Assembly (NCBI GenBank): GCA_964525555.1
Contig: CAZGHN010000003.1
Span: 160 to 64,159, forward strand
Direction of reading: 5' to 3'
Length of the DNA stretch: 64,000 nt
DNA from: an uncultured bacterium
GTDB taxonomy: Bacteria > Hydrothermota > UBA3072
Position 1 is the first letter of the stretch. Every line of letters begins with the position of its first letter. A model generated the notes under the pieces. The model saw only the letters and a program-made list of their open reading frames with translations. It ran no database searches and was not told the DNA's origin. Below, one piece after another: positions 2,340 to 64,000 of the stretch. Both the position numbers and the translations under genes were made by a program.

Positions 2340-2432
2340 AACTAAATATTGATATTATCTTTTAAAAAGTCAATTGTTGTACTTTGACTACAGAGACTAT
2401 CATAGTGACGCAAAGAACACCGAGAGAAATTA

Positions 2433-2496
2433 GTCCAAAGTCCAATGTCCGGAGTCCAAAGTCAAAACCAAAACCCAACCCCAAATCCAAAACCCC
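2433..2496. repeat. stutter run of drifting 6-7 nt words
   Basis: gtccaaa gtccaat gtccgga gtccaaa gtcaaaa ccaaaa cccaac cccaaat ccaaaa cccc. Each word differs from its neighbour by 1-3 bases. Confidence 0.7.
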
Positions 2497-2571
2497 AATA
2501 TTTAGACAGGATAAACACAGATCAACAGGATACATTTTTGTTTTTTAAAACCCAACCAATACCACAAAAAT

Positions 2572-2657
2572 AGAAAAATTGAAAAATGGAGAAATTGGTA
2601 AATGAGAAACAATTCAACTATTTTTCTATTCAACCATTTAACTTGGATTCGAAGAAT
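2572..2657 (+). repeat. ~85-nt dispersed intergenic module, copy A
   Basis: agaaaaattgaaaaatggagaaattggtaaatgagaaacaattcaactatttttctattcaaccatttaacttggattcgaagaat. Matches the reverse complement of 50125-50208 with 5 substitutions and one 2-nt indel (hand alignment). Confidence 0.8.
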
Positions 2658-2811
2658 ACATGCTCGACTACTGACTGTTCTACTGATCCTGGATAGACTC
2701 GAAACACGAAACATTTATTCGGGCAGGAACAACAGGATTTTTTATTTTTTTACTATTTAGCTATTCAATAATTGAATTATTTGACTTGCTCCAAGGCTTA
2801 TGGATTCTTAC

Positions 2812-3948
2812 TTATACATAATAATTGCAGCAACCACTACATACAGGTAGCATGTTACCCTTAAAAATCCGTCTTCGTAAATATCTGGCTTTTTCGCCAT
2901 TCCAAATTTGAAGAAAACTTTTTTGGGTTAGATCACCTACGGGAAGATCGGGACATATTTCCACTTTGCCCGGTGGTTTTATTGTAGCTGCCACCCAGGG
3001 AGCAATACATCTGCCTTCAAATCTACAAAGTAGGTCTTTTTCTTTATTGTAATATTTTTTTAAATCTTTTTCACTTATATCCGGAGTAAATCTTATTTTT
3101 ATTTTAATATTTGGGTCATTTTTATATTCCTTGATTTTCTTTATTAAAGAATTTTCGATTTTAAAAATACCATTTTTAATAAGGGCTCCCTGCCAGTAGT
3201 GAGGTTTTATTTCCCAATCTTCGCAGAAATCTTTCAGGTCTTCTGAAGTAATTGATAAAAGATGTAAAAAGTTTACTTCTTCAAAAAGGTTTTCTTGCAC
3301 AAATGAAATCATGAAATCTTCATCGGTTTCAGTATTTAACAGAGAGTTAAGAGTTAATCTGGGTCTTCTTTTATTTTGTTTTTTTTTCTCGTGATTTATT
3401 GCCTTAATACCTTTCAGGATTTTTGCAAAAGTTCCTGGAACTCTTCTAACTGAATCATGTCTTTCGGGTGTTCCATCGATAGATATATTTAATTTATCGA
3501 CTCCCAAACGGACAATGGTTTCTGCGAAGTTTTCTATCGTGGTTCCGTTTGTGATTATACTTAAGTAAAGTCCTTTTGATTTGATATATGTAATTAAATT
3601 TTTTATTTCCGGGTGGAGAAACGGCTCACCTCCCGTCATATTATATCGTGGCCTTATGTAGATAAGTTCTTTTATTACCTTTTTTGCTATATCGATGGGT
3701 ATGAAATTGTTGTTAGATTTAATTTGTTTAAGGAAACACATTTTGCAGTTAAGGTTGCATACTTCAGTTAAATAAAGTTGAATTGCTATAGGGGTCGATG
3801 CTCTTCCTCCGTTAATAGGAGTAAGTTTTTTTGCAAAATAGGAGGAAGATTTTCCCCAGAATATGAATGGTAAATTCCATAAATCTGTTTTCAAGCTCTC
3901 TTTTTGAAAAAAATTAATGAGCTTTTTATTAGATAAAAACGTTAACAT
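2812..3948 (-). CDS. radical SAM enzyme with C-terminal SPASM-like Cys-rich domain
   Basis: CNLNCKMC (CxxxCxxC) near residue 64, GGEPFLH motif, and C-terminal cysteines (CIAPW..CPD..CSGCCNYY). Confidence 0.75.
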   Translation of the reverse strand: MLTFLSNKKLINFFQKESLKTDLWNLPFIFWGKSSSYFAKKLTPINGGRASTPIAIQLYLTEVCNLNCKMCFLKQIKSNNNFIPIDIAKKVIKELIYIRPRYNMTGGEPFLHPEIKNLITYIKSKGLYLSIITNGTTIENFAETIVRLGVDKLNISIDGTPERHDSVRRVPGTFAKILKGIKAINHEKKKQNKRRPRLTLNSLLNTETDEDFMISFVQENLFEEVNFLHLLSITSEDLKDFCEDWEIKPHYWQGALIKNGIFKIENSLIKKIKEYKNDPNIKIKIRFTPDISEKDLKKYYNKEKDLLCRFEGRCIAPWVAATIKPPGKVEICPDLPVGDLTQKSFLQIWNGEKARYLRRRIFKGNMLPVCSGCCNYYV

Positions 3949-3978
3949 GCAAGGATTATAATCTTGACAGAATTTTTG

Positions 3979-5403
3979 TCAAGTTTTAATGCTTTTAAAT
4001 ATTTTATTATACAAATTCTTTATTCTAGTTCTTTCTTTATATATTAATATTATTGATAGAATTGTAAATGCGAGTATCCTTTGATATATGGTGTTGCCCG
4101 CGTGGATTGTCAAATATAATAGAATGAGACTAAAAGTTAGTTCTGAAATAAGTATTTTTAATTTATAATTCACAGGAAAAATTTTATTTCCAATTATATA
4201 AGAAAATAGGGCAAAAAGAAAGTATGAAAATAGTGTGGCTGTTGCTGCTGCTATTATACCAAAACGTGGAATTAAATAAAGATTGAGAACGATGTTTATT
4301 ATAAGGGGAGTTAAGGCGATTGGTATTAATAAGTTTGTTCTTGATTTTATGTAGAATCCGGCTGTAAAAATTTCTTCAAGGCCGAAAAAAATGTAAGAAA
4401 AAGCAATAATTGGAACTATTGATTGTGCTTCCCAGTATTGTTTTGCTACGAAAATTTTAAAAATTTCCGGAGTGAAAAATGATAAAATCCCCCACAGGAT
4501 CAAAGATAATCGTAAAAAAGTTATTGCAGTGTTTGCAAAAATTTCTTTTTTGTCAGGATTTTTGAAAAAAAATGGTGTCCAGGAAGCCCTGAATCCGTGG
4601 ACTAGTATACCCATCACTGTGCCAAACTGATATCCGAGAGTATATATACCTGTTTTTCCCAATCCTAATATCCATTTTATAATCCATCTATCTATTAGAT
4701 CTAATCCCAGCCAAATAAAAATGCTTATTGGCAATATAGGTAATCCGTATCTCAAAAGGTTTTTAATTGGTTTTAAATCGAATTTTGATGTGAATATCTT
4801 GTGTATCTCAGGATAAAGTACGAATAAAAATATAGAGCTACTTCCTAGATTACCCAGGAGTACGCCACCTATACCAAACTTGAAGTGAAGAACGAAAAGA
4901 ATATTAAGACTAATATTTGTGATAAATCTAAAAGTGTTTATTGCGACAAATTTCTTCGAGCGATTTTGTATCCTTAAAATCAAAAGTATAGGTTCTGATA
5001 AACTCTCTATCCAAATAGTTAAACCCGCAAGAGAAATAAGATAACCCTCTCCCGGTGAAATAAGAAATGATGTAATCCATTTTGAACATGATGTCAATAA
5101 AATTAGGAACAATGAAATGTAAGTTAATCTAAAGAAAAAGAATCTACTGAAAACTTCTCTTTCATTGGCGGCGGTTTCTGATAATTGTTTCATTAAAGCA
5201 TCGTTTAATCCGAGTGAAAAGAAAATAGTCAATGCGCTGGATAGTAAATAGATCATCGCTAACTTTCCGTATTCTATATGGCTGAAAGTTTGTGTATAGA
5301 TAGGTATTAAAAAAAATCCGATAGCTTTCCTAAGAAGAAACCCAAATCCGTAAACGGCGGATTCACTAAATAGAATTTTTGTACTTTGAGAGTTTCTTTT
5401 CAA
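3979..5403 (-). CDS. polysaccharide/oligosaccharide flippase (Wzx/MOP superfamily)
   Basis: 474 aa, very hydrophobic with about 12-14 predicted TM segments. Typical polysaccharide-biosynthesis-protein length and context. Confidence 0.6.
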   Translation of the reverse strand: MKRNSQSTKILFSESAVYGFGFLLRKAIGFFLIPIYTQTFSHIEYGKLAMIYLLSSALTIFFSLGLNDALMKQLSETAANEREVFSRFFFFRLTYISLFLILLTSCSKWITSFLISPGEGYLISLAGLTIWIESLSEPILLILRIQNRSKKFVAINTFRFITNISLNILFVLHFKFGIGGVLLGNLGSSSIFLFVLYPEIHKIFTSKFDLKPIKNLLRYGLPILPISIFIWLGLDLIDRWIIKWILGLGKTGIYTLGYQFGTVMGILVHGFRASWTPFFFKNPDKKEIFANTAITFLRLSLILWGILSFFTPEIFKIFVAKQYWEAQSIVPIIAFSYIFFGLEEIFTAGFYIKSRTNLLIPIALTPLIINIVLNLYLIPRFGIIAAATATLFSYFLFALFSYIIGNKIFPVNYKLKILISELTFSLILLYLTIHAGNTIYQRILAFTILSIILIYKERTRIKNLYNKIFKSIKT

Positions 5404-5447
5404 TTTATAGTACTAGCGAAATCTTAGAAGATTCCAAATTTAATCTC

Positions 5448-6416
5448 CTAAATTTTTTTGTAAAGTTGATTTCGGAAAAAACACTCGGCTCCCATGCTTG
5501 ATTTGAATGAGATTAATCCTCTATTAACTTCCATAGGATTATTTTCAGATTCTTCTTGATTTACGCCGAGATCGAGATATTTAAGTCCGTTTTTATGTCC
5601 CCATTTTATAATTTCATAGAGTAGATAGTTGATTGGTCTGTATTCTTGGTAATCGTAGTCAAGGGCGATATAAAAAGCAAGAAGAGCTTTTTCGTTACAA
5701 ATAAATATTAGGGAACCGCCCAATAGAACATTTTTCCGGTAAGCCAAAAATAATTTGAAATTATTTGGTAAAAGTTTGTTAAGTTTTTTTAATTCGGAAA
5801 GAGTGTGAGTAACCGGAACATCAAATTTTTCTTTATTTTTTATTAAGATTGGATAGAAGTTATCATAGTCATTGCTTAATTTTATTTCTACATCTGAATT
5901 TATTGCTTTTTTTATTGCACTTCTTGCATTTTGATGGCACATCTTTATTGGGTCTTGGTCAAATTGTGAAAGGTCTATTACTGAGGTATACATGTTTGCG
6001 GAATAGGAAAAACCATTGTATAAAAGTACATATTCCATATTTTTATTAATTTCTTTTGAATATATCATAGGCGGAATAGTAAAATATAATTCTTTTATTT
6101 CTTTATTTACACAGTATTCAAGGAATTTATTTATTATTATATCTGTTTTTCTGAAACTTCTATCATCCATGACTATTCCACCGAAACTTGCTCCTGAAGG
6201 TGATTTATAAATTCCACTGTTTAGCATACCAGGCAGAAGAGCTACGATATTTCCTTCTTTTTGGAATGTTAGATGATGAAAGTTAAATCTATCTTTAGTA
6301 TGATAGCTTAAGAACTGGATTTTATGAAATAAAGTTCCATTATTAGCTATCTCGACAAAATTGTCCCATTTCTCTTTGAATTCAGGTCTGTATTCTTCAA
6401 TTATTATGTCTTTCAT
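5448..6416 (-). CDS. FemAB-like / GNAT-fold acyltransferase
   Basis: 322 aa with a two-lobed layout and a C-terminal GNAT-like block (LFLAYRKNVLLGGSLIFICNEKALLAFYIALD..YRPINYLLYEIIKWGHKNGLKYLDLG). Confidence 0.5.
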   Translation of the reverse strand: MKDIIIEEYRPEFKEKWDNFVEIANNGTLFHKIQFLSYHTKDRFNFHHLTFQKEGNIVALLPGMLNSGIYKSPSGASFGGIVMDDRSFRKTDIIINKFLEYCVNKEIKELYFTIPPMIYSKEINKNMEYVLLYNGFSYSANMYTSVIDLSQFDQDPIKMCHQNARSAIKKAINSDVEIKLSNDYDNFYPILIKNKEKFDVPVTHTLSELKKLNKLLPNNFKLFLAYRKNVLLGGSLIFICNEKALLAFYIALDYDYQEYRPINYLLYEIIKWGHKNGLKYLDLGVNQEESENNPMEVNRGLISFKSSMGAECFFRNQLYKKI

Positions 6417-6428
6417 AATTCTGTTATA

Positions 6429-6506
6429 GTTAGTGTGTTAGTGCGTGAGTGTGTTGGTGGGTTCAAAAAAAAACGGACTAACATACCAACTGACTAACTG
6501 ACCAAC
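6429..6506. repeat. stutter repeat with inverted arms around an A9 loop
   Basis: Left arm gttagtgt gttagtgc gtgagtgt gttggtgg gttc, then a9, then right arm ggactaac ataccaac tgactaac tgaccaac. 8-nt periodic and partly complementary. Confidence 0.65.
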
Positions 6507-6519
6507 ATTTTGAGTTTTA

Positions 6520-7326
6520 TTAACCATATATGTACTTATCCTCAGGAAATTTACCTTTCTTGACTTCTTCTTTATACTGAGTGAAAGCTTGGCTTATTAT
6601 TTTTTCCAAATTTACATATTGTTTCGAAAACTTCGTTTTAAAATCGAATGATAAACCAAGAATGTCGTTTACGACAAGTATTTGCCCATCGAGATTTTTA
6701 CCTGCTCCTATTCCGTAGATCGGTATAGATAAGGTTTTTAGAACTTTCTGCGCCAGTTCTGTTGTTACCGATTCTAGAATAATAGCGAACACTCCGATTT
6801 TTTCAAGAATTTTTGCTGAATCAACGCTTTCTTTTATTTCTTTCTTTTTTTTACCTATTACTTTATATCCGGTTTGAAGATAATACTGTGGATTTAAACC
6901 TAGATGCCCCATTACGGGTATACCGGCATCTATCATTGCTTTTATATTTTCTTTTTGTTTTATGCCTTCTACTTTTACCCCACATGCTCCTAATTGCAGG
7001 AATTTTCCAGCGTTTGAGATAGCTTCATTTGGTGTGGTTTGTGAAGATAGGAAAGGCATATCGACGATAATCGGAGTATTCTTAGCGCCCTTAAGAACGC
7101 TCTTTGCAAATGTGAGCATGTCATCCATTGTTACGGGAATTGTGGTGGAAAATCCCATTTCACAGGTGCCTGCGGAATCTCCCACTAGAATCCAATCTAT
7201 ACCAGATCCTTCAGCGATTCTTGCTATTGAATAATTATATGCAGTAATTCCTACTGAAATTTCTTTGTTCTCTTTTTTTTTCAGGAGGGTTTTTATTGTT
7301 TTAAGTTTATCCCCCAATTCTTCCAA
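6520..7326 (-). CDS. panB: 3-methyl-2-oxobutanoate hydroxymethyltransferase
   Basis: TAYNYSIARIAEGSGIDWILVGDSAGT..VDMPF..GVKVEG..MGHLGLNPQ blocks are characteristic of PanB; 268 aa. Confidence 0.85.
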   Translation of the reverse strand: MEELGDKLKTIKTLLKKKENKEISVGITAYNYSIARIAEGSGIDWILVGDSAGTCEMGFSTTIPVTMDDMLTFAKSVLKGAKNTPIIVDMPFLSSQTTPNEAISNAGKFLQLGACGVKVEGIKQKENIKAMIDAGIPVMGHLGLNPQYYLQTGYKVIGKKKKEIKESVDSAKILEKIGVFAIILESVTTELAQKVLKTLSIPIYGIGAGKNLDGQILVVNDILGLSFDFKTKFSKQYVNLEKIISQAFTQYKEEVKKGKFPEDKYIYG

Positions 7327-8356
7327 CCAATTTTATTTTATTGCCAAGGGATATTTCAGTCTTTCCCATAATAGAAGTTATATATCCTGAGGCTGTTTCT
7401 TCTCGTACATCTACAATCTGAATTTGCCCGAGAGGTACTAGTAAATCTGACTTTTCTTTATAAATAAGAAATACATCACCCAGTTTAACCGAAGAATTCA
7501 TACCGGGTTCTATAAAAACTACTGAAAAAGGCTTTACGATGTCTTCTTTATTCTTAAATGCAATTATTCTTCCTTCGAGATCCTGAAGGGTTGGAGTAAC
7601 TTGACCTACAATAACTTCCGGAGCAGTATATTTCATAATGTGGTCACCTTTTTTTAGGGGTTCGTATGCTTCGATTATTTTAGCTGTAGAATATCTCTGT
7701 CCGGCTTCCATGATTTTCAGAGCTCCTTTTATTCTTACTATTCTTCCGTATCTTCCGACCCCTCTGTCCCATTTGAATATCATGTAAATGTCCCCTTTAT
7801 TAATGCCGTCTGAAGTTCCTTTGTTAATTTCAACTTCGTCTCCAAGTGTTGTAGGAGAACCCTTAAAAGATGGCGGGTTCTTTATTAAGTTACTAATTCT
7901 ACCAATACTAATATTTGAGTTTTTGGTTATAAATCCCGCGAGAATAGCCGCTTTCTTGGTGAACGCATAATCTTTAGCTTTAACTACAGAAAACAATATT
8001 GCTTCTTCATCTCCGACTTCCATTGGTCCTCTTGTTGTTTCTGTTTCTTCTTGTAGTTCTGTCCTCAAGCCTTTTTCTTCTTTTATTACCAAACCTTCAT
8101 CTACCGGTAAAGTTGTAGTTTGTTCCTCTGGAACATTAGGTATTACGAATACTTCTCCGGGATAAATCCAGTGTGGATCTGCTATGGAATCTTTATTTGC
8201 CTCATAAATTACTGGCCATAAAAATGGATCATTGTAATAATCGCCAGCAATAAACCATAGACACTCTCCTTTAACAACCGTATGCTTTTTGAATTGTGCA
8301 ACCAACATAATATTGGTGGTTAAGATGATAGAGATAATAAAAATAAATTTTTTCAT
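7307..8356 (-). CDS. secreted LysM-domain protein
   Basis: N-terminal signal-like helix, then LysM block HTVVKGECLWFIAGDYYNDPFLWPVIYEANKDSIADPHWIYPGEVFVIP. Confidence 0.6.
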   Translation of the reverse strand: MKKFIFIISIILTTNIMLVAQFKKHTVVKGECLWFIAGDYYNDPFLWPVIYEANKDSIADPHWIYPGEVFVIPNVPEEQTTTLPVDEGLVIKEEKGLRTELQEETETTRGPMEVGDEEAILFSVVKAKDYAFTKKAAILAGFITKNSNISIGRISNLIKNPPSFKGSPTTLGDEVEINKGTSDGINKGDIYMIFKWDRGVGRYGRIVRIKGALKIMEAGQRYSTAKIIEAYEPLKKGDHIMKYTAPEVIVGQVTPTLQDLEGRIIAFKNKEDIVKPFSVVFIEPGMNSSVKLGDVFLIYKEKSDLLVPLGQIQIVDVREETASGYITSIMGKTEISLGNKIKLVGRIGG

Positions 8357-8652
8357 TTTGACTCCTTTTCTTTTACAAATTTTAATTCAAGGTCATGAAT
8401 AATATTGTTTAAATAGCCTTCCTCTTGCTTCTCTAGATTACCTTTTGTTTTATCTCTAAGTATTCTGAGGGAATCTATTAGATACTCTGCCATCTCGAGA
8501 TCCTTGTATTTTTTTCCGGTGGTTGGATCTTCTACTAGTCCGAGAGATATATACGAACCTGTTGCAATTCTAAGGACTATGGAAATAAAAGTTGCTTTTT
8601 CTAAATTTTCTGAAATTTGCTCTTGGTTTTTGGTATCCTCTTCGCTACACAT
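8353..8652 (-). CDS. DUF1844-family small protein
   Basis: FISIVLRIATGSYISLGLVEDPTTGKK..LEMAEYLIDSLRILRDKTKGNL pattern, recalled as typical of DUF1844. 4-nt overlap with the downstream LysM gene. Confidence 0.55.
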   Translation of the reverse strand: MCSEEDTKNQEQISENLEKATFISIVLRIATGSYISLGLVEDPTTGKKYKDLEMAEYLIDSLRILRDKTKGNLEKQEEGYLNNIIHDLELKFVKEKESK

Positions 8653-8794
8653 TATTTTTCGGTTCTGTTGGGATCAGAAACCTCAAAGGATTTTTTATCT
8701 TCGGAGAAAAATATGTCAAGCTTTACTGCTCTAATGTTCTTTTTGATTTTGTAGACCTTATGCATTTAACTAATTATCCTCCGTTTTTATAAAA

Positions 8795-8869
8795 TGGGCG
8801 AAAGAGGACTTGAACCTCTGACCTCCTGCTTGTAAGGCAGGCGCTCTCACCAGGCTGAGCTATCCGCCC
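8795..8869 (-). tRNA. tRNA-Val (anticodon UAC)
   Basis: Reverse complement GGGCGGATAGCTCAGCCTGGTGAGAGCGCCTGCCTTACAAGCAGGAGGTCAGAGGTTCAAGTCCTCTTTCGCCCA folds as a cloverleaf. It has a 7-bp acceptor stem, anticodon loop CUUACAA and a GGTTCAAGT T-loop; 75 nt. Confidence 0.9.
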
Positions 8870-8958
8870 TTTTTTTATATTAATTCCTAAGTGTTGTTTT
8901 GTCAAGGTCTTTGTGGATTTATTGGCACGCAGATGAACGCAGATTTTAAATATTTTTC

Positions 8959-9069
8959 AACCACAAAACACACGAAAAATACGAAACCCAGCCCCACCAA
9001 TTATATTTTTTAACTTTAATTAAAAAAACCTAGGGGTAGGGTTTAGATTGTTTAGTGTTTTTAGTGGTT
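8959..9069. repeat. stutter repeat with ~37-nt imperfect inverted arms
   Basis: Left arm aaccacaaaacacacgaaaaatacgaaacccagcccc (8959-8995). The reverse complement of the right arm (9033-9069) is aaccactaaaaacactaaacaatctaaaccctacccc. Confidence 0.65.
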
Positions 9070-9091
9070 AATACTAGGTATTTGTGGTGAG

Positions 9092-10201
9092 CTATTTGTG
9101 GTGTTTATATTTTTTGTTTTTTATGACACTTTTGTAGAAATCTTCTGTTTTTTTTGCAACATCATGCCAGTCGTATTTTTTTGCTGTTTCCATTCCTATT
9201 TTTCTTATTCTCTGTGATTTTGAATCATTTTCCAGAATTGAAATTGCCTTATTTGCAAGGGATTGCGGATTTCCTTTTTCAAATAACATTTCTTTGTCTG
9301 GGATTACATCTTTATACCCGTCTATATTAGAGGCGATCACAGGTGTACCGCATGCCATAGCTTCAAGAAGTACAATACCAAAAGTTTCTCCGCATAAAGC
9401 GGGTGAACAGTAAATATCTGCACTACGGTAATATACCGGAACCATATTATTGGGTATCATTCCCTTGAAAATGATGAATTTTCTTAATTCTTTAGGGATG
9501 TCTTTCGGAGGATTTCCTTTTCCTGCTACGATGAGTATTGCATTAGGTATTTTTTTCTTTATTAGTGGAAAGGCTTTTATCATGACTGGCAGTCCCTTTC
9601 TAGGATCTAGTCTGCCTAAGAATAGAATGATTTTATTGTTTGAAAATTTTTTTAATTTTTTCCCTTTAGGAGTGAAACGTTTTGTGTCCACTCCGTTGGC
9701 AATGATTTTATAGTTGCCTTTTGGGAAATGAGGATAAATTTCTTTGAATGCATGCTTGGATACGCATATTGATCCATCTAATTTTTTAGAGATCGAAGTA
9801 AATAAAAATTTTGAAATTTTATAATAGTTGAAATTTGAAAAAGCAGTATGGAACGTTGCGATATTAGTCGTATTGGAATATAAAAGTGCTAAGAAAGGAA
9901 GATTAGGAGCATAGGGACCATGCGTGTGAATAATATCGAAGGAATTATCATTAATAAATTTTTTTACTTGTGAAAATAACGTTGGAGAAAAAGTCCAATT
10001 TACTTCACTTTTGTTTGCGTGTAAGGTTAATCTGTTTCCCAGTCTTGTTATTTGGCTATCTTCTTTTGCTTCGGGGTGTTTACCAGTAAGAATATGAACA
10101 TCGTTTCCTAGTGCCTTAAGAGCTTTTGAAAGATGATGAAGTACTTCGCTGACTCCTCCGGGATCTGGGTAAAAAGAATCAGATACTTGAAGAATTTTCA
10201 T
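9092..10201 (-). CDS. glycosyltransferase family 4
   Basis: GT-B fold hallmarks: N-terminal PDPGGV, C-terminal GETFGIVLLEAMACGTPVIASNIDGYKDVI (E-x7-E region). Confidence 0.8.
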   Translation of the reverse strand: MKILQVSDSFYPDPGGVSEVLHHLSKALKALGNDVHILTGKHPEAKEDSQITRLGNRLTLHANKSEVNWTFSPTLFSQVKKFINDNSFDIIHTHGPYAPNLPFLALLYSNTTNIATFHTAFSNFNYYKISKFLFTSISKKLDGSICVSKHAFKEIYPHFPKGNYKIIANGVDTKRFTPKGKKLKKFSNNKIILFLGRLDPRKGLPVMIKAFPLIKKKIPNAILIVAGKGNPPKDIPKELRKFIIFKGMIPNNMVPVYYRSADIYCSPALCGETFGIVLLEAMACGTPVIASNIDGYKDVIPDKEMLFEKGNPQSLANKAISILENDSKSQRIRKIGMETAKKYDWHDVAKKTEDFYKSVIKNKKYKHHK

Positions 10202-11528
10202 CAGAGGTAACTGCTGTTAATATAGAAGCCGGGTTGAAATCTACCTCATTTGGTGATAAAGCTCTTATTATAGTTGTTTCTTTTGGAGTTCCCTTTAGAG
10301 CTTTACCTTTTTTTACTATTGCAACTTCTCTATCGGATATCATAACTCCTTTCATTCCGCCTTTTAGGAGAACTATGGATCCTGGTGGATATATGCCCAT
10401 TATATCAAGGAATACTTTTACTAATGAAGGATCATAAATTTCGTTACTTTTTATTATATATTTAAGTGCTTCAAAAGGACTTCTTACATTCTGATATATT
10501 CTTGGAGTTGTCATTGCATCGTAAGAGTCGACTATCCTGATAATACGAGCAAATAGAGTGGGTTTCTTCGTGCTTATATCTGGATATCCGGCACCGGAAA
10601 AATCTATATGATGTTCGAGTATTCCACGAAGTCCAAATACAGGTACTTCTTCTACGCCTTTTAGAAAAATTATTCTTTCAGCGGAAAGATAAGGATGTTG
10701 TTTAATCTTCTCATATTCTATATTTGTTAAAGTATCTGGTTTGTTCAGAATATCACCTGGAATATCTATTTTCCCTAAGTCGTGGAAAAGAGCAGATATT
10801 CCAAGTTCGAGTAAATCTTTTCTTGAAATACCCAGTTCGATGCCCATAGCAATTGAAAGTATACAGACATTAGCGGAGTGGTTAAAAGTATAAGAGCCAA
10901 TGTCTTTTATTATTGTTAAAGCAATAAGATAGCTTCTTTCTTTAAAGAGTAATTCTGAAAATTTTCTCACTATTCGGCGGGCTTCATATATATTTGCTTC
11001 TTCCTCAATAGTTACTTTTTTAAGATAGCTAACCGATTCGAGAAGAGTAGAGAGAGCTTCTTTTCTTATGGAGCGTAAAATACCATCTTTTTGTTTTGAG
11101 TCTTCTATACGTGTTATTTTTATAGATTTCACACCATCTTTTTTTAGATTTTTGGATAATTCATCAAAAGAGTGTTTTGAAGCAGCAAGGTGTGAGCCTA
11201 GAGAGCATAAAAAGGATACTATTTCGTCAAGTTCCGGTAAGTTGGTAAATTCAATTGAGCCAATCGATAAAGTTTTTAAATCATGAATCAGGGATCTGTA
11301 TCTTCCCATTATGCCCATTTCTACTCTTGCCATTTCGTCATTAAAAAATAAATGGTTATCGGAAATAGATAGTTCTATTTTCTTAAAGTCTTTGAATAGT
11401 TCTGATAAAAATTGATGAGTTTTTTTAGCGTGCTGGTAAAGTGTTTGACTTTTGGTTTGAAACACTCTTGCTATATGAATTGATGATGAGAAATATAGTA
11501 TAAGATTTCTAATATCACTTTGTTTCAT
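10179..11528 (-). CDS. HD-GYP domain protein (putative cyclic-di-GMP phosphodiesterase) with N-terminal sensor region
   Basis: HSANV..ALFHDLGKIDIP..IKQHP..ILEHHIDFSGAGYP..RIIRIVDSYDAMT motifs. Confidence 0.8.
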   Translation of the reverse strand: MKQSDIRNLILYFSSSIHIARVFQTKSQTLYQHAKKTHQFLSELFKDFKKIELSISDNHLFFNDEMARVEMGIMGRYRSLIHDLKTLSIGSIEFTNLPELDEIVSFLCSLGSHLAASKHSFDELSKNLKKDGVKSIKITRIEDSKQKDGILRSIRKEALSTLLESVSYLKKVTIEEEANIYEARRIVRKFSELLFKERSYLIALTIIKDIGSYTFNHSANVCILSIAMGIELGISRKDLLELGISALFHDLGKIDIPGDILNKPDTLTNIEYEKIKQHPYLSAERIIFLKGVEEVPVFGLRGILEHHIDFSGAGYPDISTKKPTLFARIIRIVDSYDAMTTPRIYQNVRSPFEALKYIIKSNEIYDPSLVKVFLDIMGIYPPGSIVLLKGGMKGVMISDREVAIVKKGKALKGTPKETTIIRALSPNEVDFNPASILTAVTSDENSSSI

Positions 11529-13068
11529 GTTTCTTTAAAATCTCCTCGGCCGTTTCTTTTAGCTGCCTAGATTTTCTGTATTTTTTGATAATTTCGATGG
11601 CTCTTTCGTCTTTTACATTAGATAAAGCCCGGATGGTCATTTTCTTGATATCATATATTTTTTCATTAAACAGATGCTTTTTACGAAGTATTGTATTGAA
11701 TATTCTTAATGTATCTTCGGTGGTCAAAGTAGAGAGTAGTTCTAGTAATGCCTTTATTTCGTTTTCGGGTAGACGCCAGAATTTTTTTGATAGAATCCAG
11801 TCTCTTATGATTTCAAATTCCTCTGGGGTCCATATTGCTTTTAATTTTTCTAGTACTAAAACTCTGACTGATGAATCCGGATGTTTTAAATATTCGATGA
11901 CATCTTTTCTTGATAAAAGTGAAAAAAGAGTTTCTTTTATTTGGGGTAAATTTTCTCTTTCAAATAGTTCTTTTAAACATGGAATGAAGTATGGATCTTT
12001 TAGTTTTTTTACAATTGACAAAAGAACTGAGAAAGCTTTCCCCTTGGAAGTGAGTAAACGTTTTTCAAGGTCCTTTTTTCGGTCGGCAAAGATGTTCTTT
12101 AAAAGAGAGACAATCAAATCTTTTACGATAAAATCGCTGGTGATTTCTAATTCATTTATTAATGGGTCTGTTGCTTTCATGCCTATGTATTCGAGCATTT
12201 CTACTGCTTCATTTCTTGTTCTGTTTGAAGAGGATGAAGTTAAAATATGAATATATAATTGCGTAGCTGGTTCAGAGACGAGTATTTCTTTTATTTCGTT
12301 TTGAATTTGAGTAAATTCTCCTTTAGTCTCGGTGAGGCTCTCAATTAGTTTTTTTGTCTGGTATAGAGCAGAAAGGTTGCCTGATGATAGAAATTTTGGA
12401 ATTGAATCTCTAAGTATTACGTAGAGACTTTGTCTTTTTCTATGTATTTGTTCATATGATAGAAGATCCTTGATACTTTCAATTAGTAAAAAAGGAGCAC
12501 GTTCTCGATCAATTGAAATCTGTGGTTTATAGAAAATTCCGGATTTCTGTTCGTCTTTTTTATAGCTCTCTCTCTTTTTTACTTTGACCGGAAGTACTGT
12601 GAGTTGGTTGCTTTTTACTCCGGATGGCAATTTTAAACCTTCATATTCATCAATATTTTTAGTTTTTTCAACAGCATGATAAATTATATGAGGAAATTTG
12701 GATTCCCATAGATCTTCTATCAAGCCAACTTTAGAGGAATATTCTCGACCAGCTATAATTGTTACTAGAGCTTCAAGTTCTTCTTCGCTTATTCCCTCAA
12801 GGAAAGTGAAAGACCTTATCCCATTGCGATATAGGAAGAGAGGAATTGAAGTTAACCTTTTTGGGTCGGAATGTAAAACTTTTGAATCACTCATAATTTT
12901 GTCTTCATTGATTGATAAGACTATAGGGCCTAACTCTTCTTGAGCTTTCTTAAGATTATCCAGACTTTTATTTATAAAATCTTTAGTTGTATCAGAAACT
13001 TTTTGATAAAGTTTATGATTTTTTATTGATTTTACAAAATTGTTTACAAAAAAGTCTAGATCTTTCAT
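11515..13068 (-). CDS. HEAT/armadillo-like repeat protein, function unknown
   Basis: 517 aa, all-helical repeat character (..VEMLEYIGMKATDPLI.., ..HPDSSVRVLVLEKL..). 14-nt overlap with the HD-GYP gene. Confidence 0.45.
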   Translation of the reverse strand: MKDLDFFVNNFVKSIKNHKLYQKVSDTTKDFINKSLDNLKKAQEELGPIVLSINEDKIMSDSKVLHSDPKRLTSIPLFLYRNGIRSFTFLEGISEEELEALVTIIAGREYSSKVGLIEDLWESKFPHIIYHAVEKTKNIDEYEGLKLPSGVKSNQLTVLPVKVKKRESYKKDEQKSGIFYKPQISIDRERAPFLLIESIKDLLSYEQIHRKRQSLYVILRDSIPKFLSSGNLSALYQTKKLIESLTETKGEFTQIQNEIKEILVSEPATQLYIHILTSSSSNRTRNEAVEMLEYIGMKATDPLINELEITSDFIVKDLIVSLLKNIFADRKKDLEKRLLTSKGKAFSVLLSIVKKLKDPYFIPCLKELFERENLPQIKETLFSLLSRKDVIEYLKHPDSSVRVLVLEKLKAIWTPEEFEIIRDWILSKKFWRLPENEIKALLELLSTLTTEDTLRIFNTILRKKHLFNEKIYDIKKMTIRALSNVKDERAIEIIKKYRKSRQLKETAEEILKKHETK

Positions 13069-13195
13069 TGATTTAATTTTACTCTAACATTGAAAAATTT
13101 CAACCCCCCTTTTTGTTTTTGCGATATTTAAAAGATATAAATCTACTTTTAAGAGTTTTTGCTCTATCGAGGCAAAGCCGCTAAAATGTAAAAAT

Positions 13196-13360
13196 TAAAT
13201 ATCAAAATGCAAAACTACAAATCAAAGTTAAAAAATTTGTAAAAGGAAAAATTACGAGTGTCGCCAATAGAACGGATCTTTTTTTGATTTTTACTGTTTG
13301 GAGAATAGTTGATTTTGCATTTTAATTTGTAATTTTGATTTTTACTTTTTGATATTTGAT
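13196..13360. repeat. AT-rich stutter repeat with inverted arms
   Basis: Left arm aaatatcaaaatgcaaaactacaaatcaaag. Right arm ttgattttgcattttaatttgtaattttgatttttactttttgatatttgatt. The arms share inverted words (aaatatcaaaa / ttttgatattt). Confidence 0.6.
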
Positions 13361-13431
13361 TTACTGGAAATACTAAATTAACGAGAATTTTTTTAAAGAG
13401 TTAATTGATCCAAGACTTGGCGCACGAATTA

Positions 13432-14238
13432 CTATTCTATTATGCGTATTGCTTCTGGATCGGAGGTGGTTATTTCAAGTCCGTATTTTTTGTGGTCGAT
13501 GAGTTTACCTTTCAGTTCTATTTCTCTGCTGCTTAGTTCTTCAAGATTAAATCCAGTGTTTTTTAGTTTTTCTAAACCTTCTTTCCAGAGTACGAAAGTA
13601 AATTGGTCTTTTCCTTTACCAAAATCAATGAAAAGGTGTCCTGACCTAGAGACATTCCATTTGGTAGGTTTTCCTGAAATAATTATCCATTCTCCGATAT
13701 TTTTTCTCAGCTTGGGTAAATTATACGGGTTGATCCTGAGAGGTCTTTTTATGTTTCTACTCCTATTCCAAAGTTCTGCAAATTTATCTGAGAATTTACG
13801 GATAAGTTGATCACTTTCTTTTATTATTAGAAGATTTTCATCGTTGAGTTCTTCTGCCGAGTGAGTCCAGTTGAAGGAACCGGTAATCAAGACTTTCTTG
13901 TCTATTATTGCGAATTTATTATGCATTATTCCTTCGTATTTATCGCCATGTGATTTGTGGGTTTCGTCCAGTCTAACATCTAGATTTTTCTCGTTTAGAA
14001 AGTGATGTTTTGAATATCCTATTTCCTCGGTACTTTTAGAGTCGAGAAGAATTCTTACTTTTACGCCTTTTTCTTTTGCTGAAACGAGGGCATTCGATAA
14101 TTCCCTATCGGTTAATATATACATTGCAACATCTATTTCTTTTTGTGCAATTGCGATTTCTTTGAGGATTGCTTCGCGAGCACCCCCGTTTGGGCTAAAA
14201 TAAACATTTATTGATAAAGAAACTAGTAATAATAGCAT
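13432..14238 (-). CDS. phospholipase D-family (Nuc-like, single HKD) nuclease with an extra C-terminal domain
   Basis: HKD motif HNKFAIIDKKVLITGSFNWT and an N-terminal signal-like segment. About 110 aa of C-terminal extension with beta-rich, OB-like character. Confidence 0.65.
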   Translation of the reverse strand: MLLLLVSLSINVYFSPNGGAREAILKEIAIAQKEIDVAMYILTDRELSNALVSAKEKGVKVRILLDSKSTEEIGYSKHHFLNEKNLDVRLDETHKSHGDKYEGIMHNKFAIIDKKVLITGSFNWTHSAEELNDENLLIIKESDQLIRKFSDKFAELWNRSRNIKRPLRINPYNLPKLRKNIGEWIIISGKPTKWNVSRSGHLFIDFGKGKDQFTFVLWKEGLEKLKNTGFNLEELSSREIELKGKLIDHKKYGLEITTSDPEAIRIIE

Positions 14239-14243
14239 TTTTA

Positions 14244-14280
14244 AAACATCCCCCTCTGATTTATGTTGAGGGGGATGTTT
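14244..14280 (-). terminator. rho-independent terminator hairpin
   Basis: aaacatccccctc / gagggggatgttt stem with an 11-nt loop. On the minus strand it is followed by a T run, just downstream of the 14303-14647 gene. Confidence 0.6.
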
Positions 14281-14302
14281 TAGTAAGTTAAATCAACCCT
14301 TT

Positions 14303-14647
14303 TTATCTGTAGAAGAGTCCGATTATTCCGACAATTATTGCTGCTATACCGACGGGTACAGTTATTATTGTCATAAGATCATCGATTTGCTTTTCCGTTT
14401 CTTTCTTTGTTGGGATAAGTTTCAGCAAATCAAGTATTAAGACTCCACCTGCGATAACACCCACGAATAGCTGCAAAGATCCTGCGGCTCCGTGTTTTCC
14501 CAAAAATGCTATGCTGGTTAGTATTACAACGATACCGATCGGTATTTTGAGCCCGGCAAGAGCTTTTATAGAGTCTTTCAGTTTTTTGTTAACTTTCTTG
14601 ATGAGATCCATTGTCAGAATTAATCCACCTAAAATTAAAAATTCCAT
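14303..14647 (-). CDS. small integral membrane protein (about 4 TM), unknown function
   Basis: 114 aa, Gly/Ile/Leu-rich hydrophobic segments; SD aaGGAGGtatagt upstream. Confidence 0.45.
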   Translation of the reverse strand: MEFLILGGLILTMDLIKKVNKKLKDSIKALAGLKIPIGIVVILTSIAFLGKHGAAGSLQLFVGVIAGGVLILDLLKLIPTKKETEKQIDDLMTIITVPVGIAAIIVGIIGLFYR

Positions 14648-14674
14648 ACTATACCTCCTTTACGTTTTTTAAGT

Positions 14675-50113: not shown

Positions 50114-50124
50114 CGATATAATAG

Positions 50125-50208: not shown

Positions 50209-50373
50209 GATTTGTTCTTCGTGTCTTCGTGGATGTTATTTCGTTAAAATAAAATTAAAATAAGGGGTTGACAAATCAGGTTAGGCGCATAACATATAAG
50301 CATATTTAGTGATTTAAATCACAAAATAACTTTTATAGTAAAATTTGTAGTAAAACTAAGATTATAAAAAATA

Positions 50374-62188: not shown

Positions 62189-62677
62189 ATGAAGAAGAGA
62201 TTGGCTGAATTTATTATAACTTTTTCGATGTGGATTCTTTTAACATGGTCTTTGAAATTACAGGATATTATGGTTGGAGCTGTTGTGGCTTTAATTGTAA
62301 CGATTATTACACGAAAGCTTTTTCCTAGAGATGTTGTTAGACTACTACATCCGCGACGTTTTTTCTTTGCCATTCTTTATATGCCTTATTTGGTTTATTA
62401 TATTCTACTTGCTAATCTGGATGTAGCGTACAGAGTATTGAATCCGTATCTTCCGATAAATCCGGGAATTGTTAGGGTGAGAACGAGTCTCACATCAGAT
62501 TTTGCTAAGACTATTCTTGCTAATTCTATTACGCTAACTCCTGGAACTCTAACTGTGGAAGTTGATGGTGATGATTTTTACGTTCACTGGATAAATGTTT
62601 CGAGTGATAATCCGGAAGTTCAGAGGGAGATAATTTTAGGTAGATTTGAGAGAATGCTAAGGAGGATATTCGAATAA
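62189..62677 (+). CDS. mrpE: MrpE/MnhE-like subunit
   Basis: LANLDVAYRVLNP..ILANSITLTPGTLTVEVD block. Confidence 0.75.
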   Translation: MKKRLAEFIITFSMWILLTWSLKLQDIMVGAVVALIVTIITRKLFPRDVVRLLHPRRFFFAILYMPYLVYYILLANLDVAYRVLNPYLPINPGIVRVRTSLTSDFAKTILANSITLTPGTLTVEVDGDDFYVHWINVSSDNPEVQREIILGRFERMLRRIFE

Positions 62678-62934
62678 TGTTTACATTTTTATTTGCCTCT
62701 TTAATTATAGCATCTTTTATGTGTCTGTACAGGGTTATGGTGGGTCCGACACCGCCTGATCGGATGGTAGCAATAGATATACTTGGAATTATTGTTGTCG
62801 GCATGTGTGCTCTTTTCGCAGCGCAAAAAGGCAGAGATTTTTATCTCTATATAGCTATATCCTGGTCGATACTATCTTTCGTTGGTACTCTTGCACTTGT
62901 TAAGTTCCTGGAAGGTAGGGGGTTCGATGAATAA
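62677..62934 (+). CDS. mrpF: MrpF/MnhF-like subunit
   Basis: YRVMVGPTPPDRMVAIDILG motif. Confidence 0.75.
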   Translation: MFTFLFASLIIASFMCLYRVMVGPTPPDRMVAIDILGIIVVGMCALFAAQKGRDFYLYIAISWSILSFVGTLALVKFLEGRGFDE

Positions 62935-63259
62935 TAATTTTGCTATAGCTTTTGTTTTTATAGGGGTAACTTTTGATCTGCTTGGATGTCTGGGTTTAAT
63001 CAGGCTCCCGGATATTTATAATAGATTGCAAGCTGCTACAAAATCCGTTACACTTGGTACCTGTGCCATACTATTTGGTGTCTTTCTTGAGTTTGGTTTT
63101 TCTTCCGGTGGTATTAAGGCATTGATTTGTATAATGTTTGTGATGTTTACTTCTCCTACGGCGGCTCATGCGCTGGCAAGAGGTTCTCATATAAGAGGAT
63201 TTAAATTATGGGAAGGAAGTAAAGTAGATAAATTAAAAGAAGACAGGGAGAAGAAATAA
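62927..63259 (+). CDS. mrpG: MrpG/MnhG-like subunit
   Basis: GCLGLIRLPDIYNRLQAATKSVTLG motif. Start set at ATG 62927 (the track starts at 62882). Confidence 0.75.
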   Translation: MNNNFAIAFVFIGVTFDLLGCLGLIRLPDIYNRLQAATKSVTLGTCAILFGVFLEFGFSSGGIKALICIMFVMFTSPTAAHALARGSHIRGFKLWEGSKVDKLKEDREKK

Positions 63260-63261
63260 TA

Positions 63262-63876
63262 ATGAAAAAACCTAAGATAAGAGAACTAGGTGAGGCGATA
63301 AAGGCTGTAGTTAAAGGACCGTATACAACAAAATTTCCTTTTGAAGCGCCTGATATTATTCCTGAATTCCGCGGGTTCCCTGAGTATCAGGATGCTGATT
63401 GCGTAAGATGTGGGGCGTGTGCAGAAGTTTGTCCTGCGCGTGCTATTGAAGTGGAAGAGTACGAAAAAGACGGAAAAAAATTCAGGAAAGTTCGTTTTCT
63501 TTATGATGTTTGTCTCCTCTGCGGTCAGTGCGGAGCTCTTTGTACAACCGGTAAAGGTATAGTATATACTAATAATTACGCTAAGAATACCCTGGATAGA
63601 AGCGAGGTGATTCAGGAGGTAGAGGATGAATTGGTTGAATGCGAGAAGTGCGGAGAGATTATATCTACAAAACTCCATCTTGACTGGATTGCCGACAGAC
63701 TCGGAGAAAAGGCATATGCTAACCCAACTATTATTCTGGCGAAACAGGTTAAAATGAAAATTTCAGATGAAGAAGGAAGAGCTAAGGACTCTTGCGAATT
63801 TACCAGAGAGGATTGGTATAAAGTTCTTTGTCCGGATTGTAGGCGAGCTGCCTGGATGAAGGAAAACTTCCAGTAA
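63262..63876 (+). CDS. NuoI/HycF/MbhN-like 2x[4Fe-4S] subunit with a C-terminal extension carrying two CxxC pairs
   Basis: CVRCGACAEVCP and CLLCGQCGALC. The extra motifs are CEKCGE....CPDCRR. Confidence 0.75.
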   Translation: MKKPKIRELGEAIKAVVKGPYTTKFPFEAPDIIPEFRGFPEYQDADCVRCGACAEVCPARAIEVEEYEKDGKKFRKVRFLYDVCLLCGQCGALCTTGKGIVYTNNYAKNTLDRSEVIQEVEDELVECEKCGEIISTKLHLDWIADRLGEKAYANPTIILAKQVKMKISDEEGRAKDSCEFTREDWYKVLCPDCRRAAWMKENFQ

Positions 63877-63905
63877 GATTCATTTGCCATAAAGGCAAAT
63901 GAATC
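63877..63905 (+). terminator. perfect 12-bp hairpin immediately after the operon stop (terminator-like, no T run)
   Basis: gattcatttgcc-ataaa-ggcaaatgaatc, followed by the stutter run agtcatc agtcacg agtcattt gtcgag agtcaaaaag. Confidence 0.4.
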
Positions 63906-64000
63906 AGTCATCAGTCACGAGTCATTTGTCGAGAGTCAAAAAGCCCCCCAAGCCCTAAAAGAAGATTAAATTATATTAATATCGAAAATGCTTTTCCTAT

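Follow-up and report, generated by a model that had tools for sequence, protein, structure and literature searches.

Introduction

Short words repeated in tandem between genes are known from several groups of bacteria. Intergenic TAACTGA heptamer repeats have been described in Beggiatoaceae, Cyanobacteria and Bacteroidetes (MacGregor, 2015; PMC4679880), and long simple sequence repeats (LSSRs) with units of 5–11 nt have also been reported (Mrazek et al., 2007). In the literature on these repeats and on short tandemly repeated repetitive sequences (STRRs), the units are mostly identical and the arrays lie just upstream of start codons (PMC4679880). Here we analyze a 64,000-nt stretch (hereafter the window; positions 160 to 64,159 of contig CAZGHN010000003.1, assembly GCA_964525555.1) from an uncultured bacterium of the Hydrothermota lineage UBA3072. 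An initial annotation, made from the sequence alone, had noticed that most of its larger spacers are chains of drifting words, each copy mutated relative to its neighbor. Our results give good support to the view that these runs are a repertoire of conserved, dispersed and nested non-coding modules, each arm of which is a chain of tandem words. There are three main module types: an AT-chain element of ~185 nt, CAC/GTG-anchored arrays ending in GTGG, and inverted pairs of GT-rich and AC-rich chains. The inverted-pair and nested architecture, the strong conservation, and the occurrence of CACAGAG-type arrays far outside the lineage go beyond what had been noticed before.

The arrays of the window resemble STRR, LSSR and TAACTGA repeats in having tandem units of 6–10 nt, in lying almost only between genes at many loci per genome, and in their sporadic phyletic spread. 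Different heptamer blocks adjoin, indels come in unit steps, and two WOR-3 loci (L014 and L015) carry period-7 chains of up to 200 nt; the window's own chain at 6474–6506 contains TAACTGA. However, the window arrays have only 2–6 degenerate copies, form arms of larger dispersed elements or inverted pairs, and are strongly conserved between species. Tandem units of 5–11 nt were thus found above chance and mainly between genes, whereas long runs of identical units were not. The arrays also do not behave as phase-variable simple sequence repeats, since their units are imperfect and copy number was the same across the small sample of same-species sequences.

A second comparison is with repetitive extragenic palindromic (REP) sequences, bacterial interspersed mosaic elements (BIMEs), REP doublets (REPINs), miniature inverted-repeat transposable elements (MITEs; Correia, RUP) and BOX elements. 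Like these, the modules are small, non-coding, extragenic, multi-copy, hairpin-capable and mosaic or nested; they are sited between genes and at operon ends, differ in presence and absence among relatives, and in the AT-chain element have terminal inverted repeats. Where a REP has a single palindrome of 20–40 nt, the modules have arms made of word chains in tandem; no GTAG-headed REP was seen, and the GTGG/CCAC end faces outward in some pairs and toward the loop in others. Orthologous copies in the window's clade are furthermore conserved where four-fold degenerate sites are saturated, and to our knowledge positional conservation across such distances is not typical of REP copies.

Small proteins that bind cooperatively offer a third comparison. 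MetJ recognizes 8-bp metboxes and the omega repressor 7-bp heptads in direct or inverted runs, MraZ binds triple GTG-type repeats at a period of ~10 bp, and BldC binds direct repeats. Similarly, the arrays have two to five contiguous sub-sites with a short conserved anchor, a variable remainder and a period of 7–10 bp, in direct and inverted arrangements and with a fixed place upstream of a promoter; three copies are by far the commonest number among the cross-phylum matches listed. In contrast to such operators, they occur in most long spacers and past stop codons rather than in one regulon, and comprise many word families. Finally, cryptic simplicity, reportedly described by Tautz and colleagues in 1986 as scrambled, imperfect repetition of short motifs beyond chance, is regarded as a fast-evolving by-product of slippage, whereas the runs are among the best-conserved non-coding sequences of the window's clade. 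Small intergenic repeats (REPs, MITEs, STRRs) are usually treated as fast-evolving and as largely selfish or neutral; here, the word chains are highly conserved.

Results and Discussion

Word Runs in the Window and in Related Genomes

Self-similarity was scored without gaps at lags of 6–10 nt (match +1, mismatch −1.5, segment score ≥8). The segments found covered 913 of 6,991 nt of intergenic DNA (13%), compared with 88 ± 43 nt in dinucleotide-preserving and 99 ± 46 nt in trinucleotide-preserving shuffles, and the highest coverage in 200 shuffles was 251 nt. The runs are non-random, and the concern that composition-matched shuffles might give the same statistics, raised when they were first noted, is therefore answered. 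In coding DNA the same score covered 540 of 57,009 nt (0.9%; 353 ± 84 nt in shuffles). Ten of the eleven loci originally listed individually exceeded all, or all but one, of 200 shuffles, and the remaining one (63877–64000) was marginal, being matched by 3–4 of the 200. The three spacers of the stressosome locus, which had been described as free of runs, indeed had self-matches of 21, 0 and 0 nt, no higher than in shuffles; spacers 444–1994 and 62678–62881 were also ordinary. A low-threshold search with Tandem Repeats Finder (TRF) placed arrays of at least three copies almost wholly in the same spacers. Its matches of only 66–92% show that the copies are degenerate and, as had been claimed, not perfect tandem repeats.

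Reading of the eleven loci recovered all the words quoted in the initial annotation at, or within a few bases of, the places given for them: gtccaaa/gtccaat/gtccgga at 2432–2499, ttctctgtg/atctctgtg at 16667–16714, tttattgg/ttaattgg/ttgattgg at 32263–32299, ccacaaagg/cacaaaga at 36328–36352, ccacgaaga as the reverse complement of 50215–50232, agtcatc/agtcacg/agtcattt at 63904–63937, and gattcttcgaatc at both 32247 and 50124. The runs are non-coding and create pseudo-open reading frames at 2502–2714 (−), 16469–16762 (+) and 49953–50201 (−), again as first described. They are not CRISPR arrays, since tandem-repeat searching and direct reading gave contiguous, degenerate units of 6–10 nt and no repeat-spacer structure. 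Because word runs create such pseudo-reading frames and can break assemblies, their recognition should be useful to annotators.

With the same metric, control loci from ~60 genomes of other phyla mostly had 0–2% of their intergenic DNA in self-matches, compared with 6–17% in close relatives. Of two WOR-3 metagenome-assembled genomes (MAGs), one reached 29% and the other 12%, a value raised in part by a 144-nt masked stretch of N. The modules are characteristic of this lineage, with WOR-3 and Stahlbacteria as the nearest named relatives. The most extreme word chains seen were those of the WOR-3 MAGs (L015 2024–2227; L014 3815–3910, 5155–5252 and 7203–7374), in which a period-7 register is kept for up to 200 nt and the heptamer changes blockwise (AAAATGA, AAGCAGT, AAGGAAA and others); these chains include one inverted AATGACA/TGTCATT pair.

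An assembly or chimera artefact of this contig can practically be dismissed. The same modules, some at orthologous positions, are present in binchicken co-assemblies, in UBA and CSMAG MAGs and in several metagenome contigs of the Joint Genome Institute (JGI), so the runs are not confined to the contig, and CACAGAG-type arrays occur in the finished genomes of Desulfonema magnum and Calothrix PCC 7716.

Dispersed Families, Nesting and Replacement

In blastn comparisons of the window spacers with 445 kb of clade DNA, almost every run proved to be a copy of a dispersed family present at other loci. Different loci also draw on common word families, as first described. Each window copy of the AT-chain element gave 66–77 hits in ~30 loci (77 hits in 34 loci for copy 1), and copies of 2414–2463, 6429–6506, 16534–16599 and 16658–16715 were found elsewhere at 82–94% identity. 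Nineteen oriented AT-chain copies, those of the window included, were aligned. Two arms, X (AAAATGYAAAAATCAAATATCAAAATGGAAAATTACAAATCAAAGTTCAAAAAT) and Y (ending in TTTTGATATTTAATTT), are conserved in them; the core between the arms is variable and is often itself a CACAAAT chain followed by a T-run and a G-block. A terminal inverted repeat, AAATCAAATATCAAAA / TTTTGATATTTAATTT, is invariant in the 19 copies, and complementarity is restricted to its 16–19 pairs; other modules have inverted symmetry over the whole arm. The AT-chain element is thus small and non-coding, with many copies at unlinked sites and with terminal inverted repeats, as in MITEs. Of the roles first suggested for the runs, a REP/MITE-like one fits best, given that nearly every run belongs to a dispersed family and that the AT-chain element ends in inverted repeats.

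Modules are also nested in, and replaced by, one another. In L203 the core of an AT-chain element contains a GT/AC hairpin, and in L223, a Stahlbacteria contig, AT arms are enclosed by a CACAGAG pair. Spacer A is 77–100 nt long without the AT-chain element (L002, L003) and 355–397 nt long with it (window, L006, L004). Spacer B, located 3′ of an OmpA-family gene, holds four different hairpin modules across five species. The window, L325, L328 and L333 have a CCAC hairpin at this site, L003 and L004 the AT-chain element, L002 a short CACAGAG hairpin and L016 a GCTTTTA/TAAAAGC hairpin. In the outgroup L005 this junction has no spacer, and the two genes overlap.

The individual runs of the window are as follows (L numbers are those of the comparison loci).

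2432–2499, + strand: AGTCCAA-type heptamer chain of 4–5 drifting copies passing into a C-run chain (CAAAAC/CCCAA); TRF period 7 ×5.1 and period 6 ×5.2; self-match beyond all shuffles; copies at L003 9868–9919 (88%) and in L269.
2572–2657, − strand: inverted second copy of the 50125–50208 module, with AAAAATAG/TTGAAAAATGG words and a GATTCGAAGAAT end (blastn, 92% over 86 nt); also matches L002 3583–3645 and L256.
6429–6506, no strand assigned: inverted chain pair (RNAfold) with a GT-rich GTTAGTG arm (6429–6463), an A9 loop and an AC-rich GACTAAC/GACCAAC arm (6474–6506), filling the spacer between two co-directional genes; copies at L267 5288–5362 (82%), in L203 (nested in an AT-chain element) and at L004 9771–9812.
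8925–8944, + strand: GCACGCAGAT ×2 at period 10 (reading, self-match); its reverse complement stands upstream of the tRNA-Val promoter, TTGACA-17-TAATAT at 8905–8877 (−).
8961–8998, + strand: CCAC-anchored chain (CCACAAAA CACACGAAAAA TACGAAA) with a C-block end, the left arm of an inverted pair that forms a hairpin with 9033–9067.
9033–9067, − strand: right arm of that pair, a G-block followed by TTTAGTG-type words ending in GTGG (reading, folding).
9080–9103, − strand: CACCACAAATAG ×2, the first copy giving the last codons and stop of gene 9092–10201 (−) (reading).
13164–13364, + strand: AT-chain element copy 1, with a degenerate GC hairpin head (13169–13182), A-rich X arm, variable core and T-rich Y arm (blastn).
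16539–16571, + strand: CAATTTA heptamer chain of 5 copies; TRF period 7 ×5.4; copies at L002 222–287 (85%) and in L329.
16592–16619, − strand: GTG-anchored words (TTTCTCTGTG ... TTCTCTGTGG) ending in GTGG-TTCAAT (reading).
16667–16714, − strand: GTG-anchored array of four words (TTCTCTGTG/ATCTCTGTG) ending in GTGG-TTCAAT, 33 nt upstream of the −35 of the PBP1A promoter; TRF period 9 ×5; dispersed copies at L253 546–603 (93%) and in L243 (94%).
16723–16746, + strand: T-run and G-block (TTTTTTGGGGGATTGGGGGGGCGG) abutting the −35 TTGACT, kept in relatives.
19614–19641, + strand: CAC words at period 10, CCACGGATGA ACACAGATGT ACACTGAT, the left arm of an inverted pair; invariant in 4 species.
19704–19731, − strand: right arm ATCTGTGTTA ATCAGTGAAA ATCAGTGG, with G-blocks on either side at 19690–19703 and 19740–19754 (folding).
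19770–19790, − strand: mini-array AATCTTGAG TTAATCCTGTGG directly upstream of the Shine-Dalgarno sequence and ATG 19815 (reading, alignment); two words in the window, three in L328 and L333.
32247–32259, no strand assigned: palindrome GATTC-TTC-GAATC overlapping a stop codon, with a second at 50124 (reading).
32263–32379, no strand assigned: inverted chain pair of TTAATTGG-type words (32263–32299) and CTAATTA-type words (32344–32379), with a GTG-type mini-array in its loop (32310–32332, − sense); TRF period 8 ×4.5, RNAfold.
36328–36352, + strand: CCACAAAGG CACAAAGA CACAAAGG, past the stop of the V-ATPase subunit F gene (reading, TRF).
36386–36556, − strand: AT-chain element copy 2, in the opposite orientation (66 blastn hits, 31 loci).
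36595–36664, − strand: degenerate GTG-anchored words (CTTAGTG, TTGGTG, TTCGTGG) upstream of ATG 36679 (reading).
47838–47987, − strand: AT-chain element copy 3, between convergent genes (69 blastn hits, 29 loci), followed by the sole canonical bidirectional terminator hairpin of the window.
50088–50113, − strand: array TTCTCTGTG TCTTTGTG TCTCTGTGG, period 8 (reading, TRF).
50124–50208, + strand: composite module of the GATTCTTCGAATC palindrome, AGTTGAAT words and then TTTCCCA/ATTTCCCC words (blastn); 92% identical to window 2657–2572 and 94% to L002 3582–3645.
50215–50232, − strand: array TTCTTCGTG TCTTCGTGG, 37 nt upstream of GGGG-TTGACA (reading).
63904–63955, + strand: AGTCATC-type heptamer chain followed by a C-run block (TRF; marginal against shuffles), coming after the hairpin GATTCATTTGCC..GGCAAATGAATC (63877–63905), which itself lies 3′ of a stop codon.

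A small palindrome, TA-GATTC-NNN-GAATC, recurs at module boundaries (32247–32259, 50124–50136, L256 77, L320 30 and L261 49), and the hairpin 63877–63905 begins and finishes with the same GATTCA..TGAATC. Runs of G6 or C6 are 33-fold enriched in spacers (8 in 7 kb, 1 in 57 kb of coding DNA). Such G- or C-run blocks are found at 2463–2499, 9033–9045, 16723–16746, 19690–19703, 19740–19754 and 63942–63955, often abut a −35 element, and in relatives read GGAGGTGGTGG or GCTGGTGG.

Conservation Between Species

Conservation of the modules was compared with that of the flanking genes, whose proteins are 70–87% identical between the window and its relatives and whose four-fold sites are only 36–60% identical, near saturation. 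Orthologous spacers nevertheless align end to end, spacer B at 91% identity with L325 over 218 nt and at 82% with L328 and L333 over 180 nt, and spacer A at 85% with L323 over 365 nt. The AT arms of copy 1 (13164–13364) are ~97% identical to those of the orthologous copy in L006, where the core between the arms has been replaced and the flanking four-fold sites are only 44–49% identical. Overall, modules are 82–97% identical between species despite saturated four-fold sites. They are thus conserved above the neutral rate, either constrained or continually homogenized to a master, which argues against neutral slippage. Within species, the arrays upstream of PBP1A were identical in independent samples (L322=L326=L330, L002=L331, L016=L327 and L001=L323; a small sample) and are therefore not contingency tracts.

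The suggestion that the runs are slippage-prone hotspots does not survive this comparison as far as present-day instability is concerned. A neutral origin as cryptic simplicity, with the runs as slippage debris in unconstrained AT-rich spacers or as hypermutable contingency tracts, would account for short, tandem, degenerate units. It would also account for word variants that are uniform within each array, which imply past duplication or homogenization, and for the one interspecies difference in copy number, at 19770–19790. However, we regard it as very improbable, because conservation is far above neutral, the same multi-word sequences recur at unlinked loci, independent samples of a species carry identical arrays, and stressosome-locus spacers of similar composition lack runs.

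A less improbable but still doubtful alternative is that the modules are selfish miniature transposable elements without host function, their conservation resulting from ongoing transposition or from gene conversion off masters recognized by a transposase. Such elements would be expected at non-orthologous sites, in random orientation, nested, and present or absent among relatives, as is observed, and the 16–19 bp terminal inverted repeats of the AT-chain element and the frequency of CACAGAG arrays in viral contigs (see below) point the same way. What speaks against selfish elements is that orthologous spacers are 82–91% identical over their whole length, intervening sequence as well as modules, where four-fold sites are saturated, and that the distance from array to promoter is roughly constant in at least nine species. 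Target-site duplications were not seen, nor was a transposase among the 20 of ~65 window genes scanned.

Position Relative to Genes and Promoters

The modules sit between the previous stop codon and the next promoter. The CCAC chains at 19614 (after the OmpA-family gene) and 36328 each begin 16 nt past a stop codon, and AT-chain elements lie 12–80 nt past a stop codon and 60–130 nt before the next start.

Among all trinucleotides, CAC/GTG had the strongest periodic autocorrelation in 33 kb of clade intergenic DNA (10.5 times expected at lag 9, 8 times at lag 10), with a flat profile in coding DNA. Repeated sub-sites, a conserved anchor and a regular period, the hallmarks of an operator array, are thus present; a fixed distance to a promoter was found for one promoter, that of PBP1A. 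In 13 metagenome contigs and 6 MAG loci representing at least nine species, this promoter has a common plan of two to four GTG-ending words (the last one GTGG), 32–39 nt of A/T and a G-block, and TTGACT. The filler of the words varies by species (CTCTGTG, CTTTGTG, TTAGTG, TTCGTG) but stays the same inside any one array, a pattern that indicates concerted evolution about a constant anchor. Phased A-tract curvature of the AT arms was considered and rejected, as their period is ~7 nt and not 10.5.

Near-consensus promoters (TTGACA-16/17-TAATAT/TATAAT) were observed at 16152–16125 (−), 13103–13076 (−), 3982–3955 (−), 8905–8877 (−) and 16749–16777 (+). These end 7–9 nt before start codons, or before the tRNA 5′ end, implying that leaderless mRNAs are common. 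Other genes, among them the one with its start at 19815, are preceded by a strong Shine-Dalgarno sequence, GGAGG.

Hairpin Potential and RNA-Level Readings

Many chains are inverted pairs, in which an A- or C-rich chain, an A/T loop and a complementary T- or G-rich chain give long imperfect hairpins when folded. Their RNAfold z-scores span −2.2 to −5.0, with values on the + and − strands of −5.0/−3.1 for 6425–6510, −3.7/−3.9 for 8950–9075, −2.6/−4.3 for 19610–19735 and −4.5/+0.5 for 32255–32385. Because the last is stable on the + strand only, its pairing relies on G·U pairs. Direct arrays with no inverted pair are found at 2425–2560, 16580–16730 and 50060–50240. In relatives, an inverted chain pair fills the spacer of convergent genes in L005, and a CACAGAG pair lies just downstream of the 5S rRNA gene in L195. 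Canonical terminators were not enriched in positions 1–20000 (16 sites, 13.7 ± 3.8 expected). None of them was in a word-run spacer, so that the intrinsic form (GC-rich stem of 5–20 bp, short loop, U-tract) was not seen there; in the window, the classical form was found only at 47993–48025. A search of Rfam at gathering thresholds matched only the tRNA-Val in the window, and a search of 16100–16800 at E≤1 matched nothing.

In principle, every chain could belong to a hairpin in a transcript, serving in termination or, as in REPs, in the protection of mRNA 3′ ends, with the partners of single arrays degenerate or distant. We consider this purely RNA-level reading unlikely, though the strongest of the alternatives. 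It gains from the modules that start 16 nt past stop codons, from the frequency of inverted pairs (including 33% of the cross-phylum arrays among the matches listed), from the hairpin at 32263–32379 that depends on G·U pairs and is stable in the sense strand only, and from the pair downstream of the 5S rRNA gene in L195. The number of canonical terminators in 1–20000, no higher than in shuffles, and the orientation of arrays in other phyla, where, by crude calls of open reading frames, the GTGG end usually faces a stop codon at a median of ~37 nt, also agree with it. It does not readily explain partnerless arrays at a fixed distance upstream of a −35 in at least nine species, the orientation independence of the AT-chain element, the absence of compensatory changes in spacer B and in the AT-chain element, or the two of six hairpins that are more stable on the antisense strand.

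A Possible Role in Operon Punctuation

Our preferred explanation, held with middling confidence, is that the spacers are mosaics of selected MITE/REP-like, BIME-type modules that act as operon punctuation, with roles both as hairpins and as DNA-level arrays. Since the modules occupy the DNA from the end of a transcription unit to the next promoter, operon punctuation is their most likely function. Each module consists of short tandem words with a fixed anchor and variable filler at a period of 7–10 nt; the words were probably born by local duplication and kept uniform inside each array, giving the appearance of drifting words. The inverted-pair modules probably form long imperfect hairpins just past stop codons, with a terminator-like or 3′-end-protecting role. 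Such a role is suggested by where they lie, by their capacity to fold into hairpins, and by the fact that classical terminators are not enriched. The single CAC/GTG arrays, whose anchors are spaced by roughly a helical turn and keep a set distance from the −35, are probably phased binding or bending sites of the promoter. This DNA-level role is suggested by the near-helical period of the anchors, the fixed promoter distance, the partnerless arrays, the independence of orientation, and the conservation of sequence rather than of pairing. RNA-type and DNA-type roles are likely each to apply to different modules; protein-binding arrays and terminator or insulator structures, both named among the first suggestions, are possible readings.

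Several observations weigh against operon punctuation by such modules. AT-chain elements are unbiased in orientation relative to the flanking genes (14 sense, 12 antisense), which argues against a strand-specific RNA role. Covariation in RNAalifold models was almost lacking, at 1 of 39 pairs in spacer B and 1 of 19 in the AT-chain element (19 copies), mostly because the module sequences hardly vary; the method did reveal it in a neighboring GC-rich element, with 13 of 34 pairs compensatory. In spacer B, the right-arm changes in L328 and L333 are uncompensated in the left arm, and co-evolution of the AT arms as a hairpin was rejected, as native pairs were no more stable than chimeric ones (20 elements, permutation p = 0.9995). 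On the side of mobility, no target-site duplications were found, filled and empty orthologous spacers differ throughout so that there is no clean insertion boundary, and a Pfam scan of 20 of the ~65 window proteins gave no transposase. Gene conversion among many copies could mimic purifying selection. The many word families would require several binding proteins or one of loose specificity, and a candidate protein was not identified.

The modules are interchangeable at a given spacer and stand at operon boundaries, in a region where promoters are leaderless and classical terminators are no more frequent than expected. If the roles proposed here hold, they would form a compact, portable system of transcription-unit punctuation in a poorly known branch of bacteria.

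CACAGAG-Type Arrays Beyond the Lineage

The pattern TGTG-N0-2-TCTYTGTG-N0-2-TCTYTGTG gave at least 120 matches in species-representative genomes of many phyla and at least 120 in viral contigs. A composition-matched scrambled control also gave at least 120 matches (the chance estimate for single hits is ~40), so the raw hit count is uninformative. Among the matches listed, however, an inverted CACARAGA partner was present within 400 nt in 33% of genomic and 11% of viral arrays and in 0% of controls, and the end of the array was G in 85–87%, then Y in 93–95%, then D-A-A. Only the inverted partners and the conserved G-Y end tell real arrays from the scrambled control. The arrays listed come from Acidobacteriota, Proteobacteria, Planctomycetota, Chloroflexota, Bacteroidota, Cyanobacteria, Chlamydiota, archaea and viral contigs, and use periods of 8 and 9 interchangeably; about one third of the genomic ones have the inverted partner 15–250 nt away. 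Examples with pairs include Pyrinomonadaceae (with a fixed 40-nt arm and 23-nt loop), Brocadiaceae, Chlamydiia, Desulfonema magnum and Calothrix. In the Desulfonema magnum chromosome (L134 200–440), a unit of ~114 nt is tandemly duplicated, with a classical terminator hairpin followed by a GCCACGAAG.../...CTTTGTGGC chain pair. On the strand as given, this chain pair forms only with G·U pairs, a hint of an RNA-level role in this species.

The literal dimer strings CACAGAGA/CACAAAGA did not occur in the literature searched, and general searches gave no description of arrays ending in GTGG-Y, returning only work on STRRs, LSSRs, TAACTGA repeats and a triplex motif; the triplex-motif work appears unrelated to the arrays. 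On 19 loci with CACAGAG pairs, Rfam found only rRNA and tRNA. By-eye comparison with DnaA boxes, IHF sites, LexA boxes, Chi, boxA and transposon ends gave mismatches at critical positions in every case. A general reading of GTGG-YDAAW as an extended −10 promoter was also rejected, as the would-be −11 position is A in only 20% of arrays; the information content of the array end fades past +5. Locally, at 19786–19800, an extended −10 may be present. Tentatively, and with clear doubt, (N)YTYTGTG ×3 followed by GTGG-Y-D-A-A could be the site recognized by a cellular factor of wide conservation, or could mark a mobile non-coding module of pan-bacterial distribution, in either case one not yet described. 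If so, the lineage of the window multiplied this array module and its sister modules until most long spacers were filled. Being absent from Rfam and, in literal form, from the searched literature, the cross-phylum arrays may mark an unrecognized, widely shared DNA or RNA signal.

Gene Setting and Other Observations

The window has a GC content of ~36%, ~65 genes and one tRNA-Val. Its PBP1A is closest to those of binchicken MAGs (75–83% amino acid identity), followed by Stahlbacteria, UBP2 and WOR-3 (~42%). The functions parted by word-run spacers are unrelated, and by Pfam include a radical SAM enzyme, a FemAB-like protein, PanB, a glycosyltransferase, a PLD-like protein, glycine-cleavage P protein, PBP1A together with an OmpA-family protein, a 2-hydroxyacid dehydrogenase and V-ATPase subunit F. 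The 2-hydroxyacid dehydrogenase gene starts at ATG 19815, as judged from four aligned relatives and from its Shine-Dalgarno sequence, and not at the program-called TTG 19743; the spacer annotated as 19599–19742 therefore reaches 19814. The switch in gene orientation at 16.1 kb was considered as a replication origin and rejected, since GC skew is positive on both sides.

The divergent spacer contains, on the + strand, a GC-richer element at 16143–16452 (core 16290–16400). For six copies, one of them non-orthologous (L323 1508–1651), RNAalifold predicted three helices with 34 pairs, of which 13 have compensatory double changes and almost none are broken. On this covariation model, the element is a candidate for an undescribed structured RNA, possibly carried by a mobile element.

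Pfam confirmed the stressosome-type locus (21093–26779), with three PAS-STAS proteins, one STAS protein and RsbT-like kinases. The upstream regions of its PAS-STAS (RsbR-like) paralogues are duplicated at 83–86% identity (20625–20762 and 22396–22533; 20930–20977 and 22703–22750), and this duplication explains why the spacers of the locus are long yet free of word runs.

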